A DNA stretch of 64,000 bases from Eledone cirrhosa (taxonomy: Eukaryota), in contig OZ024740.1 of the NCBI GenBank assembly GCA_964016885.1, positions 127,100,001 through 127,164,000 of the forward strand, read 5' to 3'. The notes below the pieces were generated by a model. It did no database searches. It was given only the letters and a program-made list of their open reading frames with translations, and was not told the origin of the DNA. The position numbers and the translations under genes were made by a program. Below, one piece after another: positions 1,183-48,280 of this stretch; within the stretch, counting starts at the first letter, position 1, and each line of letters starts with the position of its first letter.

Positions 1183-1530
1183 TTCGGTGACAACCATCTT
1201 TGTCTGTGACCTCTTCATGATTCCAGTTCCTCAGTGAAATAACAACCCAACCAGGAACTGGGCATATCAGAGTATTGACAAAGTTAAACAGCTCAACAAC
1301 ATGTGTACTCGTCTCTACCACACTAATTCGGACTGCCTGAAGAGGTCACAGCCAAAGATGGTTGTCACCGAAATATATATAGCAGTAATAAACGAAGCCA
1401 AATTTAAAACATTTGACTTATTTATTTTAGTTTATTTTACATTACTCCGGAGTAACCAAACCAACCTGCGCACCACGTCGAGTGCTCCAATCTGCATACT
1501 GATGTGTTGTTATACAACCAACATATACTA
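1177..1530 (+). mobile_element. Non-autonomous PLE-type HHR element (family A) with short inverted 5' arm, between (TA)n tracts
   Basis: 1177-1218 is the reverse complement of about 1338-1380. Homologous to 47960-48280. Confidence 0.8.
1332..1386 (+). ncRNA. Minimal type I hammerhead ribozyme
   Basis: ACTGC-CTGAAGA-GGTCACAGCCA(AAGA)TGGTTGTCACC-GAAA-TATAT-ATA-GCAGT. Stem I 5 bp, stem II about 10 bp, palindromic stem III ATATATAT, AUA cleavage triplet. Confidence 0.85.
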
Positions 1531-3082: not shown

Positions 3083-3240
3083 GATTGTTTAAGTATTGAG
3101 AGAAAGAAAACAAAGAAAGAGAGGAGATACATATATTTAGTTGCCAATAGTTTGTGCAAATATGCTTAATACTTGTGCCTACAGGGTTAGATATTAGAAA
3201 CGTCAATATTCAATGGGCGAGAAAAAATAAGCAGAGCGAT

Positions 3241-5651
3241 TATAAAAGAAGTGAATACAAGGAGTATAAACCGTTAAAACATGTTTATATAACAATGCAC
3301 CTACGTACGTTTCGCCCAGAATGGGCTTATGAAGGGCATGGAAAACGAAAAAATGATCAATACGCGACCCACGAGGGGTTTTAAGGTTAAATTCACATCA
3401 GAGTTCATTCTTCGCTTAAGTGCATGTGCTGTTATTACTGCAAAGCAGGGGGAGTAACTCCGGCCAGTGCTCGAACAATCTTGTCCCACTTGGTTTATTT
3501 ACCCATTCACATGATGGTGTTTTGGTTTATTATTTTATGGGTGCTGTTTAACTAATGCCAGTTGAAGCCGGGACTGGGATGCACATATGTTATCTTGTGG
3601 GTGTTGCTTTACTAATGCCTGTGCGGGCAGGGTCTGGGATTTACATTTGGTTCACAGATGTTTGTTTACACCGCTTGCCCACGTAGTGTTATGGTTAGGA
3701 CAGAGGGACCCAGTTTATAGTTTTCATGGCGCAGTCGCTTCCCACGCGAACTGCCACGCCTGCACTCGGTGCCTACATTTTATGACTGATTCCGCTCTGC
3801 TGTTTATGAGCTCGTCTTATGATGTAGTAAAGCTCCATGAGGCAAAGCTGACAATTCTTCTATAAATTTGTAGGGTGCAGCCCTACCGACAATATCCCAG
3901 TGTGAGGAGAAGCTGATGTTGGCGGCTTTTAATGTAGTGACGTAATTCGCAAGTGACGTGGAGTGCCTTATTTTTTTGTTCCTGAAGGAGTGGAGATGTG
4001 TTCTAAATCTCGTTTTGAACTGGCCAGAGGTGGCCCCTATATAGTGTTTAACTCCATTATGGCTAGTTACGGTGCACCTATAAATAACCTTATCTGTCAG
4101 ACAGAAAGGCGCGCCTAGCCGAACATAAAGTAAAGATGACGTATCACTAGCTACAGCACAGTAACAACCGTAAGTACAGCAAACTAGGAAGCACAACTTG
4201 TAGCAAACACACGGTAAAGCGAAAATGCCACTGTAATCTCCTATAGTTACACCCCCACACACGCCACTCTCGGAGTGTGGCCTCCGATCTACCGGGGATA
4301 TTCTTCGAAGCCTTACAGAAGAATGTCCCACCCAATCATAAATACTGGAAAATACTTAATAGGAACAATATCAAAATATCCTTCTCTACAACCCCCAACC
4401 TACCAGATCACAATAATATCACCAAAACACGGCATCTTAGCACAGATATATCTAGACCCGACAGCAACACTAATAACCTTAACATCTCCCTAACAGCACC
4501 CATTAGTGTCGGTGGCAGCCCCAGCAGACGAAACCGACGTAACCAAGGCGAGACTGGGGAGTATACTGCTGACCCGCACGGGTCACCCACCGGCAACACA
4601 ACGGGCTGCGGCGTGCGGAAAGACAATGGTACAACACCGCACGCCTCGAGATATAACAGTACCAATGACCGAGATAGAGACAGAGATAACAACAGGTAGC
4701 AATAGTAATAGCTTTACCTCGGGAACTAGGAGCGACCGTGAAAGAAAATGCAACTGTCGTGACAGGGGAGGCTGCCCTCTCGGGGGAAACTGCCTGACAG
4801 ATAAGGGTATTTATAGGTGCATGGTAATTAGCCATAATGGAGTTAAACACTATATAGGAGCCATCTCTGGCCAGTTCAAAACGAGATGTAGAATACATCT
4901 CCAGCCTTCAGGAACAACAAAAATAAGGCACTCCACGTCACTTGCGAATTACCTCACTACATTAAAAGACGCCAACATCAGCTTCTTCACACACGGGGCT
5001 ATTGTCGGTAGGGCTGCACCCTACAATTTCAAGAGGAAATGCTAGCTTTGCCTTATGGAGGTTTACTACATCATAAGAGCACCCCACGAGCTCATAAACA
5101 TCAGAGCCGAATCAGTCATAAACTATAGGCACCGAGTGCAGGCGTCGTACTTCGCCTGGGAGGCAACTGCGGCATGAAAACTATAAACTGGGTCCCTTTG
5201 CCCTAACCATAACACTCTGGTGGGAAATCGGTGTTAACAAACAACTGTGAACCAAATGTACATCCCAGACCCTGCCCGAACAGGCATTAGTAAAGCAACA
5301 CCCACAAGATAACAAATGTGCATCCCAGACCCGGCTTGAACTGGCATTAGTGAAACAGCACCCATTATTTAATAACACAAAACACCATCATGTGAATGGG
5401 TAAATAAACCAAGTGGGACAAGATTGTTCGAGCACCGGCAGGAGTTACTCCCCCTGCTCTGAAGTAATAATTGCACATGCACCTAAGCGAAGAATGAACT
5501 CTGATGTGAATTTAACCTTAAAACCCCTCGTGGGTCGCGTATTGATCATTTTTTGTTTTCCATGCCCTAGATAAAACCATTCTAGGCGAAACGTACGTAG
5601 GTGCATTGTTATATAAACATGTTTTAACGGTTTATACTCCTTGTATTCATT

Positions 5652-5660
<9 letters not shown>
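3241..5660. mobile_element. Fold-back PLE (family B): 5'-truncated + copy (about 4105-5660) preceded by an inverted copy of its last ~860 nt
   Basis: Arms 3241-4104 and 4790-5660 are reverse complements with scattered substitutions. Both encode GIY-YIG sequence. The right end runs into (TA)n. Confidence 0.92.
4275..5180 (+). pseudogene. PLE linker plus C-terminal GIY-YIG endonuclease (CNC..CPL.G.CL type, probably Nematis-like clade), disrupted
   Basis: PPNHKYWKILNRNNIKISFSTTPN, then KCNCRDRGGCPLGGNCLTDKGIYRC...HYIGAISGQFKTR...TSLANYL...RAAPY...C*LCLME, with a frameshift and a stop. Confidence 0.88.
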
Positions 5661-5706
<46 letters not shown>

Positions 5707-5711
<5 letters not shown>

Positions 5712-7736
5712 TTAGAAACACACAGATACATGCGGACACACACATATATACATGAATGCATCCGCACCCAACTGTGAGTTAAGGGTGCCAACTTCACCGA
5801 TGTTGCTCAATGAATGACTGGGACAGACCAATTCAGTTTGAACCAGACTGAACCAGTATCAGAGTTAAAAATACATTATGAAGAGAGAAGAAACATTTAG
5901 ATATAATTAGTAATAAAATGTATCATACCTAAACTGTTCCTAAATTCCTCGACTACGTAGTTTCGTGGCAAAAACAAAAACAATATATCAAAGATATAGA
6001 GTCCTTGCGAGGTCTGCCGACTTATCAAGAGGATACCTCATTTTACTAGTCTCAAGAACGCGTCTACACGACGTGAGAAAGAATCCCAAAGGCGGAGGGG
6101 GAGATAGTCACGCGATATAACGGTCGAGAAACAGAGCTAAGCCTCTTATAACCACGAAAAAAATACCACGGAGGCGGAGGGGGTATTCATATCGAGGCCG
6201 TAGAAGAGGTAGTGAAGAAGGCGAGAAGTATGAGTAATGGAAGCTTTCCAGTTGTCCCCACACCTCAAAGATTGCTCTACCAGAGGGAGTTATTAATACA
6301 TTTAGAAACACACAGATACATGCGGACACACACATATATACATGAATGCATCCGCACCCAACTGTGAGTTAAAGGTGCCAACTTCACCGATGTTGCTCAA
6401 TGAATGACTGGGACAGACCAATTCAGTTTGAACCAGACTGAACCAGTATCAGAGTTAAAAATACATTATGAAGAGAGAAGAAACATTTAGATATAATTAG
6501 TAATAAAATGTATCATACCTAAACTGTTCCTAAATTCCTCGACTACGTAGTTTCGTGGCAAAAACAAAAACAATATATCAAAGATATAGAGTCCTTGCGA
6601 GGTCTGCCGACTTATCAAGAGGATACCTCATTTTACTAGTCTCAAGAACGCGTCTACACGACGTGAGAAAGAATCCCAAAGGCGGAGGGGGAGATAGTCA
6701 CGCGATATAACGGTCGAGAAACAGAGCTAAGCCTCTTATAACCACGAAAAAAATACCACGGAGGCGGAGGGGGTATTCATATCGAGGCCGTAGAAGAGGT
6801 AGTGAAGAAGGCGAGAAGTATGAGTAATGGAAGCTTTCCAGTTGTCCCCACACCTCAAAGATTGCTCTACCAGAGGGAGTTATTAATACATTTAGAAACA
6901 CACAGATACATGCGGACACACACATATATACATGAATGCATCCGCACCCAACTGTGAGTTAAAGGTGCCAACTTCACCGATGTTGCTCAATGAATGACTG
7001 GGACAGACCAATTCAGTTTGAACCAGACTGAACCAGTATCAGAGTTAAAAATACATTATGAAGAGAGAAGAAACATTTAGATATAATTAGTAATAAAATG
7101 TATCATACCTAAACTGTTCCTAAATTCCTCGACTACGTAGTTTCGTGGCATAAACAAAAACAATATATCAAAGATATAGAGTCCTTGCGAGGTCTGCCGA
7201 CTTATCAAGAGGATACCTCATTTTACTAGTCTCAAGAACGCGTCTACACGACGTGAGAAAGAATCCCAAAGGCGGAGGGGGAGATAGTCACGTGTATCTG
7301 TGTGTTTCTAAATGTATTAATAACTCCCTCTGGTCGAGCAATCTTTGAGGTGTGGGGACAACTGGAAAGCTTCCATTACTCATACTTCTCGCCTTCTTCA
7401 CTACCTCTTCTACGGCCTCGATATGAATACCCCCTCCGCCTCCGTGGTATTTTTTTCGTGGTTATAAGAGGCTTAGCTCTGTTTCTCGACCGTTATATCG
7501 CGTGACTATCTCCCCCTCCGCCTTTGGGATTCTTTCTCACGTCGTGTAGACGCGTTCTTGAGACTAGTAAAATGAGGTATCCTCTTGATAAGTCGGCAGA
7601 CCTCGCAAGGACTCTATATCTTTGATATATTGTTTTTGTTTATGCCACGAAACTACGTAGTCGAGGAATTTAGGAACAGTTTAGGTATGATACATTTTAT
7701 TACTAATTATATCTAAATGTTTCTTCTCTCTTCATA

Positions 7737-7741
<5 letters not shown>
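5707..7741. mobile_element. Retrozyme-like element (family C): 590-nt unit x2.7 in tandem (HHR on - strand) plus inverted arm 7293-7741, both ends in (TA)n
   Basis: Units start at 5707, 6297 and 6887 and differ at only 1-2 positions seen. The same 75-aa spurious ORF recurs on both strands. Confidence 0.92.
7580..7667 (+). ncRNA. Type I hammerhead ribozyme with U3-A8 core variant (minus-strand copies at 5946-6033, 6536-6623, 7126-7213)
   Basis: TCCTC-TTGATAA-GT(C)GGCA...TGCCAC-GAAA-CTACGTA-GTC-GAGGA. Palindromic stem III ACTACGTAGT, GUC triplet. Confidence 0.75.
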
Positions 7742-7770
<29 letters not shown>

Positions 7771-7773
<3 letters not shown>

Positions 7774-7941: not shown

Positions 7942-8088
7942 TATATGTATATATATATATATATATATATTCATTAGTTAAGCAAAACAAGACCACACAT
8001 TTCACAAGGAAGACATTATTAAAAGACTGTCAACATATTTTAGTTTGATGTAAGGAATGTAGAGAATATTCATAATAATATTAATAAT

Positions 8089-8272
8089 TGTTTCTACTTT
8101 AGGCACAAGGCCACCAATTACCCAATGCATTACTGGTACTTTATTTTATCGACCCCGTAAGGATGAAAGGCAAAGTCAACCTCGGCGGGATTTGAACTCA
8201 GATCGTAAAGGGACGCAACTATGCTGGAAAGCATAGTTATGACCCTCCACCAATACTGCCAATCACCGCCCC
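8089..8272 (-). mobile_element. SINE S1 copy with putative TSD TATTAATAAT (8079-8088 and 8273-8282)
   Basis: Reverse complement of 868-1053. Confidence 0.85.
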
Positions 8273-8299: not shown

Positions 8300-10612
8300 G
8301 TTTCTCTACTCCATATAATATTTCTGGATCAAATGATTATAGATCATTATTGATCTGGTTCAGTTGAAAAGAATTAAGTTAGGTAAAATTAGAGCAGCTA
8401 ATCGGAACTTCAAAAGGAATATAAATTAAAATAAGGAAAGAATGTTACATGAATGTAATGTTCCATATATTGGTATTTCACTATGGTGTCCTCGGTATAT
8501 CTATTGTCTGCCATAGTCGGGCAGTATTCTTCTGTCGAGGCTGCATTGTGTGAGCTCTGCCTCTGGCTAAGAAGATGGCCGCCAGTGGACATATTTACCT
8601 TACTAATTAGAGGGTGGTTTCAGGGTATGTAACTCCTTGTGAAATTAGAATTTGTGGGTAGTTTATAGTTAAGAAGTGCTAATTTCTTTTATTTTTTAAT
8701 TGAGAGAAAATGTAAGGGAGGTAACTTATAATTATCTAAGTTAGCTATAACTATTTAACTTATTAGCTACAAGTAAAAATGGGGCTAGATGCATATGTTG
8801 GGTCATATTCTGTTGGCGAAGGAATTAGCCCTTCGATGTTGACAGCATATAGTTACCTCCGTTCTATCGTTAATCGGTAGAGGTCGTGATAGAGTTATGT
8901 AATAGGCTTCAGTAAGACAAAGGTCACAAGAGTTTCTTCGTCCATTGAACGGTTGGGCCCTAGCCAAGATATTCCATGTTAGTGAGTGTTCAATGTTGGT
9001 TAATTTAAGGTTTTTAATGAGCCTAGCTAGAGATGTCGAACATCTGTTGTTAAGGTCTCGGAAGGAAAAAGAGTGCGCGTTATAGCGTACCTTAAAAGGG
9101 TTAGTGGTAGAGCCGATATAGGAGCTGGTATGCGAAGCAGTTTTAACTGTGCACCTATAAACTATATTGGGTGTCAGGAAAAGTCCATTTAGTGTGCATG
9201 CATTAGGGTAACGGCAGTTGCAGTTACTTCTGCGGTTAGTGAGAGTTGGGTTGTTTAAACTAAGCGGTTGGTCACTGCTAGAAAGATTAGATGGGGGAGG
9301 TGTGTACTAAAGTAAGTATTGGTGTAGTGGCGTGCTGTATTTGATGGGGGTGATGGTACCGCTTTGTGGGAGTTATGCTGTCTTAGTTTATGATAGTTAC
9401 TGAATGCGATGTGGCTAGCTAGGTTACGTGTTGTGGAGAACGAGATGTTAATGTTTTTATTAAAGAGATTGTAATATCTATGGTTGGGGGGGAATGTTTA
9501 GATAGGATTGAGAAGAAGCGTTTAGGGATATTAGTGGCTAGATTAGATGAGAATGGGGGGGGGGGTTAAGCCAGGTGATACTTCTAGGCCTATTCCTTCT
9601 AGGGGTTCTAGTGGAGTTGGTAGGGGCCTTCATAGTGTTATTATTACCTGGGAATTTGGTATTTGTCATCCCATTGCTCATTCCTATTCTAGGGTTGATT
9701 TTTAGTTTGCTACTTGGAAAGGGTAGCAGGCCACTGCCACCATTAAGGTTCCCTGTATAGGTGGTGTTACTGCTAACATTCCGGCGAATCTGGCTATATG
9801 CTAAGTTATTTCTAGTTCTAGTGTTAAGCTTATTATGGTTGTGGTGAAGTGCTATCTGATGGCATTTAGGTATGTAGTAAATGGACTGTTCATAACCAGA
9901 TTCAGAATGAGCCTTATTATAATATGCCGCATGGTTTATAAATATCTCCTCATTTTGGTGATAGCATGGAGATCCTATACGAGATAGATTTGATTACTGC
10001 TCTGATAACTGTCGGTGGGTGGTTAGAGTGTGGGTTAATTATATGTAAGTATTTCACCTGGTTTATGTTAAGGGTAATATATGTTATTGTTAAGATCTAG
10101 GGTAACGTCTAGGAAGTTTACTACTTTATGGTTCGGCTCGATGTTGATAGAGAGACCGTTATTTTCAAAGAATCTATGTAATTGTTTTTTGAGCAAGTCA
10201 ATTCCTCGATTAGTGCAATTGTGGACTGCAAATAGGGCGTCATCCCTATATATTCTGCCTGGCAAGTGTTGGATTTCAGCTCTGATGTTATGTAATAGGT
10301 AAATTCCAACTAACTCGGTGATTTGCGCAGTCACTTGAGTCCATAGTGATGTGAAAGTTGTCTGTTCTGTCTTTTCTAGTCCAGAGTGCTCCGTTGAATT
10401 CAATGATGGTCTGCCTAGCCATAAGTATGATGCCAATCTCATTATTGGTTATGTCAGATTTGGTGCTGGCTAGGGCTAATGATTTGTTGGGCAGTGGCGG
10501 GGTTATTGAAGCGTAATAACTGTCAATTTCAAACTGGAGGAACCTCATAGATTCCTTGGACCTTAGATCGGAGAACCATCTAATGACTTGGCCGGTGTTG
10601 GACCACACCTTT
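8300..10612 (-). mobile_element. 5'-truncated decayed PLE: RT (about 10608-9850), linker, GIY-YIG (about 9230-8803) and 3' UTR
   Basis: [11 protein letters not shown]...FLQFEIDSYYASI...ELVGIYLL...IYRDDAL...VNFLDVTLDL. Endonuclease: CNCRYPNACTLNG...IVYRC...SYIGSTTNPFKVRYNAH...CDLCLTE. The 3' boundary is approximate. Confidence 0.9.
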
Positions 10613-21260: not shown

Positions 21261-21419
21261 CGTGTGTGTGTGTGTGTGTGTGTCTGTATGTGTTTGAGTT
21301 TGTGTGTAAGTGTGTGTGTGTATGTGTACCTATATATGTACATTCATACATATACAATGTCCATTATGTGTGTTTGAAAATCGTATACCCACGATATATA
21401 TATGTGTGTGTGTGTGTGT

Positions 21420-22964
21420 GTATACGTACATACACATATGTATACAGACGTACAGTAGTATGTATATATATACATACATGCACACATATATATATGTGCA
21501 CGTGTCGGTTTACCGAACATTTATTATAATGCTCGGTTTGTTTGTTTGTAAACAAATAAACAACCCTAATTATGCCGTACAGTGTTTAGTCAACCACGTC
21601 ACCTTTTTGTTCAACACTGACACAGGAACGATGTACTAGTTTCAAGCTTATTAGCTATCGTCAGCATCGTATACCTTCCTGCCAGATGGTTGAACGTTTG
21701 AAAGTATATACTTTCCTTATGCATATTAACGGCTGAGTAGCCTAATTTGCATATCGAGTGAGTTTAGTCGGCCGGACGCACCGAAAACGATAAATGGAAT
21801 AGAATGAAACGAAATTTCATTTCTCACTCTTAGTACGGCAGTTACTTAAATGTAATTATGTATGTATGTATACGTACATACACATGTGTATACAGACGTA
21901 CAATAATTTGTATATATATACAAACATGCACATATATATATATGCACGTATCGGTTTACCGAATATTTATTATAATGCTCGGTTTGTTTGTAAACAAACA
22001 AACAGCCCGAATTAGCCGTACAGTGTTTAGGCAACCACGTCACCTTTTTGTTCAACACTGACACAGGAACGATGTACTAGTTTCAAGCTTATTAGCTATC
22101 GTCAGCATCGTACACGTTCCTGCCAGATGGTTGAACGTCTTAAAGTATATACTTTCCTTATGCTTATTAACGGCTGAGCAGCTTAATTTGCATATCGAGT
22201 GAGTTTAGTCGGCCTGGCGTTCCGAAGTCGATAAATGGAATAGAATGAAACAACATTTAATTTCTCACTCTTAGTACGGCAGTTACTTAAATGTAAGTAT
22301 GTATACGTACATACACATATGTATACAGACGTACTGTAGTATGTATATATATATACATGCACAGATATATATATGCACGTACCGGTTTACCGAACATTTA
22401 TTATAATGCTCGGTTTGTTTGTAAACAAACAAACAGCCCGAATTACGCCGTACAGTGTTTAGGCAACCACGTCACCTTTTTGTTCAACACTGACACAGGA
22501 ACGATATACTAGTTTCAAGCTTATTAGCTATCGTCAGCATCGTATACCTTCCTGCCTCACTCGATATACAAATTAGGCTACTCAGAGTTTAATATGCATA
22601 AGGAATGTATATACTTTCAGACGTTCAACCATCTGGCAGGAAGGTATACGATGCTGACGATAGCTAATAAGCTTGAAACTAGTACATCGTTCCTGAGTCA
22701 GTGTTGAACAAAAAGGTGACGTGGTTGCCTAAACACTGTACGTCGTAATTCGGGCTGTTTGTTTGTTTACAAACAAACCGAGCATTATAATAAATGTTCG
22801 GTAAACCGATACGTGCATATATATATATATGTGTGCATGTATGTATATATATACATACTACTGTGCGTCTGTATACATATGTGTATGTACGTATTCATAC
22901 ATACTTACATTTAAGTAACTGCTGTACTAAGAGTGAGAAATGAAATTTCGTTTCATTCTATTCC

Positions 22965-23442: not shown

Positions 23443-24183
23443 AAGGCTAGAATGTTGGTATTCCCCGTCACAATTAATATTGCGAAACAGTATTATCAAA
23501 ACTGTCCGGGAGATTGGTAGTTAGCACAATTCTGGTTTTTATTTATCTTTCTTGATTTATTCTTAAATTATGTCAAGCAAACCCTCTTGTCTGTAATTAG
23601 CGAATCTGGTCACTTGAGATTTGAATACATATATGTATATGTCTGTGTTCGTTTTTCTTTTTTGTTCAGTTATATTATACGGCTTGGAAAAACCTCTTTA
23701 TTACTAATTTTATTGTAAGAGACTATTTTTAGTTTTAATAACTCAATGCACGCCTTTGATATATTCGACTCTGTTAATTCATGGAGCTAATTCAAATGTC
23801 GAGTAAACCCGGTTGCTATTTTTAGTAGCCTGAGTTCGCGAAACACGCCAAATACTGGCACCATGCGCGTTATATATACGCACACTATCCAGTTTTTTAA
23901 TAAACTTAGAAGTGACTAGGATACTAATAATTCTTCACCCGCTGATGAGCTAGAATTTTTGTATTCCTCTTCACAATTAATATTGCGAAACGGTATTATC
24001 AAAACTGTCCGGGTGATTGGTAGTTACCACAATACTGGTTTGTATTTATTTTTCTTGATTTATTCTTAAATTGAGTTGAGCAAACCCCATTGTCTGTAGT
24101 TAGTATTCTTTTCACCTTAGCGAATCTGGTCCCTTACGAATTGAACACATATATGTCTGTGTTCGTTTTTATTTTTTGTTCAG

Positions 24184-47862: not shown

Positions 47863-48280
<418 letters not shown>

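Follow-up and report, generated by a model that had tools for sequence, protein, structure and literature searches.

Paired, fixed 3′ ends and variants shared by all units in a large family of 590-nt hammerhead retrozymes suggest the copying of one RNA monomer from two starts

RNA circles and mobilization by Penelope-like elements have been proposed for the animal class of retrozymes (PMC7229834), and in the accessible text of the relevant reports the circle route stands as a proposal for both retrozymes and Penelope elements (PMC4209133, PMC7229834). Insertions of Penelope-like elements, for their part, are described in the available accounts as partial tandems with an inverted 5′-truncated copy and a tail of 30–40 bp that is “often” found at one end only (PMC8557442, PMC3846280), and the available text of one of these accounts states that the origin of the tandems, the inverted arms and the tails is open (PMC8557442). 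In vitro, a Penelope-like protein was reported to cut and extend both strands, to start reverse transcription at two internal positions of its RNA and to be predicted as a dimer (PMC11167929, accessible text). The same text reports that the ribozyme is dispensable for insertion in vitro, a result that counts against the model proposed below.

This report focuses on a locus in a window of 64,000 nt (the whole stretch of DNA that was analysed), which belongs to a genome of 3.0 Gb. The locus is genuine and holds a young member of a large family of retrozymes; its class is a known one, and its value is mechanistic. It represents an abundant non-coding animal retrozyme with two fixed 3′ ends, and we consider it probable that a Penelope-like enzyme cut (TA)n and, from two starts, copied a single RNA of 590 nt that was probably a circle.

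The insertion is made of two arms in inverted orientation (Table 1). Arm 1 shows 2 mismatches at lag 590 and has its 3′ end 245 nt past the cleavage site (site A), that of arm 2 lies 80 nt past the cleavage site (site B), and the outward ends of both arms consist of AATGTA running into (TA)n. The initial annotation, which had described near-identical non-coding units with one hammerhead each, an inverted arm, and outward ends at different registers of which neither is the cleavage site, is borne out on these points. Its count of 2.7 units holds for the assembled length but perhaps not for the moment of insertion: one unit of arm 1 was probably added later, by DNA-level duplication or by assembly, because three alleles absent from all other loci are confined to two adjacent units of that arm. 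These private alleles are transversion-rich, of the kind that arises at the DNA level. On the variants seen, 1.7 units at insertion are as likely as 2.7, and even with 1.7 units the cleavage site is crossed twice. The longest ATG-started frame in the unit has 75 codons and is closed by a stop, as read from the alignment, in a sister family of 73% identity; comparison of the unit with Penelope-like protein gave no match. The fold predicted for the 590-nt monomer beats those of 100 out of 100 shuffled sequences (z −6.6).

Table 1. Features of the insertion and of its immediate surroundings (positions in the window)
Feature	Positions	Strand	Remarks
Hydra-type Penelope-like element, separate, older, inverted	3083..5660		Endonuclease remnants in both arms
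Left (TA)n target tract	5657..5708		Also closes the neighbouring Penelope-like element
Arm 1	5706..7292	-	1,587 nt, 2.7 head-to-tail 590-nt units; 3′ end is site A, 5′ end is register 429
165-nt “tail”, interval from site B to site A	5706..5870	-	On the outward end of arm 1 only
Hammerhead copy	5946..6033	-	Predicted cleavage after 5951
Candidate duplicated stretch	5971..6963	-	Three locus-unique alleles, each twice, 590 nt apart
Hammerhead copy	6536..6623	-	Predicted cleavage after 6541
Hammerhead copy	7126..7213	-	Predicted cleavage after 7131
Arm 2, inverted	7293..7742	+	450 nt; 5′ end is register 221, 3′ end is site B
Type I hammerhead, U3-A8 core TTGATAA, palindromic stem III	7580..7667	+	Predicted cleavage after 7662
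Right (TA)n target tract	7740..7771

Each 590-nt unit bears one type I hammerhead, composed of stem I (TCCTC/GAGGA), the core TTGATAA, a stem II of 57 nt, GAAA and, as stem III, the palindrome CTACGTAG; the predicted cleavage follows GTC. The U3-A8 core is a variant known among the ribozymes of Penelope-like elements, according to the available text of PMC4209133. No hammerhead family of Rfam matched this ribozyme at the gathering or E-value thresholds, and the 111-nt ribozyme stretch alone did not fold better than shuffled sequences (z −0.6). The catalytic fold lies 1 kcal/mol above the best fold, and stem III is weak. The density of variants in stems I and III and the core is about a fifth of that in the rest of the unit (9/2,548 vs 684/40,256), stem I of older copies is changed on both sides (from CCTC/GAGG to CCCC/GGGG), and the core is kept in the sister family.

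Further, indirect evidence on cleavage comes from arms that begin at the cleavage site, which are first-pass stops in 18 of 23 loci (for a control register, 3 of 18; p 1e-4), a comparison of small numbers between imperfectly matched test and control patterns. All 25 matches of the cleavage-site set were examined, as were 21 of the 22 control matches, 18 of which proved to be true 5′ ends. By raw count, the 5′ ends that these genome-wide patterns place at the cleavage site (25) are not in excess over those at the control register (22), the cleavage-site pattern being blind to junctions with a T two bases upstream and the control covering about three registers. A second control register (33 ends) was flawed, because one substitution is enough to satisfy its pattern. 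Judged from these junctions, the ribozyme appears to cut at the predicted position, and the cut ends appear to give no later-pass excess.

The family is dispersed and mobile and has reached a high copy number, in the thousands. Exact matches in the genome number 6,528 for a ribozyme pattern of 32 nt (none for the reversed control) and 8,226 for a pattern of 14 nt (28 for the control). A first set of 79 distinct loci, from which 11 overlapping records had been dropped, was drawn from the best BLAST matches, from 20 loci chosen for their B end and from 30 chosen by the ribozyme pattern; 60 additional loci were obtained with later patterns. In registers that start at the cleavage site, nearly all 3′ ends lie at +80 (site B) or at about +245 (site A), with a spacing of 165 nt, and the 5′ ends of arms are scattered across all registers. 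Exact B-to-TA junctions number 1,848 genome-wide, and A-to-TA junctions number 1,088 on the forward strand alone, the reverse-strand count being inflated by a variable gap; the 133 matches of one A-end pattern stand for the youngest A variant only. Since the 3′ ends of the family fall genome-wide at A or B, the ends seen in the window are not the arbitrary priming positions that had been proposed for them at the outset: they are the two fixed ends of the family, paired A+B.

Both sides are flanked by (TA)n at 73 of 77 loci, and among the mapped loci the flanks and the 5′ junction differ from one locus to the next. The initial annotation had set against its own reading the finding of copies that share a fixed 3′ end and are attached to a Penelope-like open reading frame; fixed ends do exist, at two sites, and at none of the 79 loci does the unit continue into RT/GIY-YIG coding sequence. 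On the latter count, a truncated pLTR of an autonomous Penelope-like element was rejected as an identity for the unit. A protein match in the flank was found at 10 loci, the nearest lying 299 nt from the arm. A plant LTR retrozyme, which has type III hammerheads in its LTRs and a 4-bp target duplication, was likewise rejected on the type I order, the head-to-tail units and the (TA)n flanks.

Target-site duplications were sought at 76 loci, and a non-simple duplicated word was found in just 6 of them and was clear only in L014 and L026, where flank words of 28–43 nt are duplicated on either side of the insertion and represent long target duplications, present in a minority of loci. The 5′ truncations cluster at registers 354–413 (27 of 122, with about 12 expected), and a hairpin and TATA microhomology lie nearby. 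At registers of about 48–80 and 224–245, a predicted hairpin precedes each start site, as does the motif TATCT-NNN-TGTTTCT...AATGTA, which is common to A and B; this is a possible recognition signal. In the sister family (L092–L110, L035:5095-5390), the ribozyme core is unchanged and both ends, A and B, have their homologues; A+B pairing was just glimpsed in it.

The two ends are not combined at random. Among 69 inverted insertions resolved at an identity of at least 90% (2 more ran past the fetched stretch), A+B accounts for 61, A+A for none and B+B for 3, while an odd end is present in 5; in the first set alone, 45 of 47 are A+B. The anatomy of a non-autonomous Penelope-like insertion, with a partial tandem, an inverted 5′-truncated arm and a one-sided tail, is present in the family. 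All three B+B blocks come from the set chosen for 5′ ends at the cleavage site, and two of them (L208 and L221), which have one junction in common with an adjacent A+B block, appear to reflect a single secondary rearrangement; this leaves L206 as the true exception. Single arms of the first set end at A in 16 cases and at B in 16, with 1 odd end. Fixed, paired starts are demonstrated by these genomic sequences, and the interval between A and B is the “tail” of Penelope elements, four to five times longer here (160–165 nt vs 30–40 nt).

The variants carried by individual insertions bear on the nature of the template. At 37 polymorphic sites, the minor allele occupies all units at 175 locus-sites and is mixed at 7, and the two arms of one locus are concordant in 111 comparisons and discordant in 5; in L026, the arms carry different haplotypes at two sites. 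The mutation spectrum was drawn from alleles present at no other locus, in 94 loci with repeated cover. Sense A>G changes make up 12 of the 30 private alleles found in all units (T>C, 4) and 8 of the 17 found in both arms, as against 5 of the 122 confined to a single unit (T>C, 16); the difference between all-unit and single-unit alleles is significant (Fisher p 1e-6) and holds with looser rarity cut-offs. Because A>G is strand-biased and common to every unit, these changes point to an origin at the RNA stage followed by multiplication, and they likely arose on one RNA monomer that was copied over and over. As to their cause, A-to-I editing is a guess from general knowledge; neighbour preference of the editing enzymes and pairing bias at the A>G sites were not significant. 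Private variants found in some but not all units are transversions in 12 of 15 cases, like DNA-level changes. In the eight-unit inverted insertion L073, seven sense A>G changes occur in all 7–8 units, and its junction carries a short reiterated motif.

The cleavage junction holds 6 private variants per 2,101 bases, compared with 302 per 108,290 elsewhere, which amounts to no excess and no scars. In five loci (L202, L207, L214, L216, and L218), the stops of the two arms each lie no more than 10 nt from the cleavage site. We read these junctions as the occasional use of cut linear monomers, the majority template being endless at that point and most simply a ligated circle. Two loci, L081 and L085, have private variants in exactly one unit of each arm; these lie outside a monomer-circle model, and conversion between arms and a multimer template are candidate readings. 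Copying of a single monomer per insertion is well supported by the genomic variants, and the circle and the dimer are what we infer. Of the reverse transcription round an RNA that had initially been read from the locus, the repeated copying of one monomer stands, on the scarless crossing of the cleavage site and the all-unit A>G changes, and the arbitrary priming falls. Among the assembled contigs of four public runs, one contig of 621 nt corresponds to the unit plus 30 nt; it was set aside because a collapsed tandem yields such a contig as readily as a circle.

Other templates and other origins of the inverted arm have to be weighed against two coupled starts on one circle. Linear multimer transcripts of donor arrays, uncut or partly cut, could serve as template with no circle at all, a reading that we regard as unlikely. 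The weak stem III and a catalytic fold that is not the best one would favour it, as would the L085 variant, which by our own reading fits a multimer primed two units apart; in addition, uncut RNA is the dominant substrate in vitro (PMC11167929, accessible text) and 8 of 9 Xenopus retrozymes are reported without cleavage in vitro (bioRxiv 10.64898/2026.07.22.740005, accessible text). However, a multimer template predicts RNA-stage changes in single units, where A>G is in fact rarer than T>C (5 vs 16), and it lets arrays only shrink, yet arms of up to 7.2 units exist; later-pass run-offs at the cleavage site are moreover unenriched (5 vs 15 over about three control registers). Improbable, too, is a linear ribozyme-cut monomer on which the enzyme jumps from the 5′ end to the 3′ end, so that tandems arise without a covalent circle. 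Jumping predicts the same allele sharing as a circle does, and the five loci with both arms stopping at the cleavage site are evidence that cut monomers are sometimes used; it should nevertheless scar the junction, where variant density equals background, and the 25 stops at the site genome-wide have to be set against about 4,000 arm ends.

A very small probability is given to the formation of the inverted arm by fold-back self-priming of one cDNA (PMC3846280, accessible text) or by L1-style twin priming, instead of two coupled starts. Arm-arm junctions are mostly blunt or overlap by 1–5 nt, and 6 of 47 are near-palindromic where 2.5 are expected, both in favour of such events. Fold-back is, however, impossible for the 5 of 47 pairs in which neither arm is contained in the other (3 without any common sequence), and therefore is not the general route; arm lengths are uncorrelated (rho 0.08), both arms exceed one unit in 16 of 44 pairs, and twin priming on adjacent sites needs A arms that end within 175 nt, as only 7 of 44 do. 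Fold-back and twin priming are thus contradicted as a general route and may account for a minority of cases. A satellite-like expansion of short pLTR insertions at the DNA level, or an artefact of their assembly, is scarcely credible as the origin of the tandems. The duplicated unit at the window locus, the transversion-rich variants found in some units, and L038, where the whole locus is duplicated, are what such an origin would produce, but the all-unit variants have a different, strand-biased spectrum, the 5′ junction is individual to every locus, and arms longer than one unit are frequent (74 of 122, in a sample biased to long arms).

Coding elements of the same design occur next to the insertion and elsewhere in the genome. 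In the older element that adjoins it in the window (Table 1), one arm ends at about +59 and the other at +219, as counted from the cleavage site of the element's hammerhead (after 5599 on + and 3302 on −), and the B end of the element shares a (TA)n tract with the 590-nt insertion; both of its ribozyme cores are mutated, and copies of its family carry the core TTGATAA. A young related family includes a natural open frame of 927 aa at L171 (G000:C1:252655500-252664000), a locus with an inverted arm and both ends intact, and many genomic copies have identical endonuclease scores. In 20 fetched loci of this family, the inverted copies are A+B in 7 of 7 cases, with sites at +59/+219, and the ribozyme core is TTGAGAA, of the rare U3-A8 type also found in the 590-nt unit. 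The 927-aa frame has RWK, DRT in place of DKT, CxCX5C, CxxC, CxH, as well as GIY-YIG at the C terminus, is devoid of CCHH and is associated with a (TA)n target, and on these motifs it falls in the Hydra clade. Pfam detected the GIY-YIG faintly (E 0.09), and a PDB sequence search with the 927-aa protein gave no match. A Neptune label for the coding neighbour was dropped, its motifs fitting the Hydra clade as described in the available text (PMC8557442, section 11).

No alignable sequence is common to the Hydra-type coding element and the 590-nt unit, and the element therefore shows the kind of machinery involved and is not a proven partner. Among the fetched loci, no coding element has the ribozyme or the sequence of the 590-nt unit; in the search by endonuclease, 150 of 41,622 candidates were scored. 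A diverged piece in L035, considered as a partner, proved to be a sister retrozyme and not a coding element. A looser stem III pattern gave 10 more loci; 1 did not match the unit, and the 9 that did belong to older subfamilies or to the sister family. At about 8800–10600 (−) of the window lies another Penelope-like fragment, which is broken and contains pieces of RT and GIY-YIG along with cysteine motifs of Hydra-like type.

In the mechanism proposed here, tandem copies would be transcribed, cut by their ribozymes to monomers and ligated into circles, and a Hydra-clade RT/GIY-YIG protein, probably as a dimer, would nick (TA)n on both strands. Priming would occur at B from one DNA end and at A from the other, aided in each case by a TA-like microhomology of a few bases, and both cDNAs would roll round the circle over independent distances before being joined 5′ to 5′ as an inverted insertion. 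Alternatively, only one of the two cDNAs would be kept and would be joined to the flanking (TA)n, leaving a single arm, with A and B in equal frequency. Besides the in vitro result on the ribozyme, what weighs against this reading is the raw count of 5′ ends at the cleavage site, the three B+B blocks, the two haplotypes of L026, the non-significant editing context, the failure to find a coding partner among the fetched loci and the apparently duplicated unit at the window locus. For the complete scheme, a two-headed rolling-circle retrotransposition in which a dimeric Penelope-like enzyme would copy one ribozyme-made circle in both directions from both (TA)n strands, primed 165 nt apart, and A-to-G edits would be fixed in every unit of both arms, the chances seem to us evenly balanced. 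If true, it would explain jointly why Penelope-like elements in general have tandems, inverted arms and one-sided tails. The family supplies young copies by the thousand, a rule of pairing that is nearly strict and holds also for a coding element with an intact frame, and a mutation signature that points to single monomers. With a short RNA and a natural 927-aa protein at hand, the model is testable in the existing in vitro system, and the L171 protein is the natural candidate for such work.

The window holds other repeats as well. Another hammerhead-bearing family, with the core CTGAAGA and a TATATA stem III, is found at 1332–1386 (+) and 48107–48226 (both strands), and in one place forms a short palindromic mini-insertion. 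The type I hammerhead motifs at 23937–24014 (+), 35456–35521 (−), and 37802–37880 (−), which are single and differ in sequence, are probably the ends of other Penelope-like families. A short interspersed repeat of 151 nt is present at 904–1054 and 8083–8233, 97% identical and in opposite orientations, and also in the flanks of other loci. Finally, a 441-nt tandem repeat (2.6 copies, 91% matches) occupies 21407–22556, in which a hammerhead scan of the window detected no ribozyme.

As far as the accessible texts of the cited sources describe them, the closest systems compare with the 590-nt family as follows. Animal non-LTR retrozymes are the same in being non-coding tandems with a type I hammerhead per unit, a low GC content and thousands of copies (PMC7229834; bioRxiv 10.64898/2026.07.22.740005). 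The 590-nt unit is longer than the 150–450 bp first described; this length, which had initially been taken as unusual, is an ordinary one, because families of 51–972 bp are reported (bioRxiv 10.64898/2026.07.22.740005). In contrast to that class, the ribozyme here, with its U3-A8 core and long stem II, belongs to the Penelope type, and the two fixed paired ends and the genomic evidence for a single monomer are absent from the class descriptions available. MRC1 and other non-autonomous Chlamys elements are likewise non-coding, multicopy, head-to-tail and driven by Penelope-like elements (PMC8557442). The Chlamys clade is described without canonical hammerheads, and its elements resemble their partners at the 3′ end (PMC8557442), a resemblance not found for the 590-nt unit. 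With the Hydra clade (PMC8557442, section 11), the coding element found here has in common RWK, a DKT-like motif (DRT), CxCX5C, CxxC, and CxH, the absence of CCHH, the (TA)n target and a hammerhead, and an element of this clade is likely the kind of partner that the 590-nt retrozyme has; a non-autonomous hammerhead tandem is not among the features described for the clade in that text. For the near-strict A+B rule, the 160-nt tail and the all-unit A>G signature, no account was found in the literature searched, which comprised few subscription papers and the supplement figures of PMC11167929 and PMC8557442 as text only.

The nearest likenesses are with Penelope-like insertions themselves, whose anatomy, with a tail on one inverted arm and microsatellite targets, is the same (PMC8557442, PMC3846280, accessible text); the differences lie in a tail of 160–165 nt instead of 30–40, near-obligatory on exactly one side where those accounts have “optional” or “often”, and in a unit without an open reading frame. 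Likewise, the Poseidon element PAc of Anolis has in vitro two internal RT starts that define its tail, cutting and extension of both strands, an AT-rich target and a predicted dimer (PMC11167929). According to the text available, the start sites of PAc are adjacent, non-homologous to the target and without strand preference (PMC11167929), whereas those of the 590-nt family are separated by 165 nt, have TA-like microhomology at their ends and are used in a coupled way, with one on each side.
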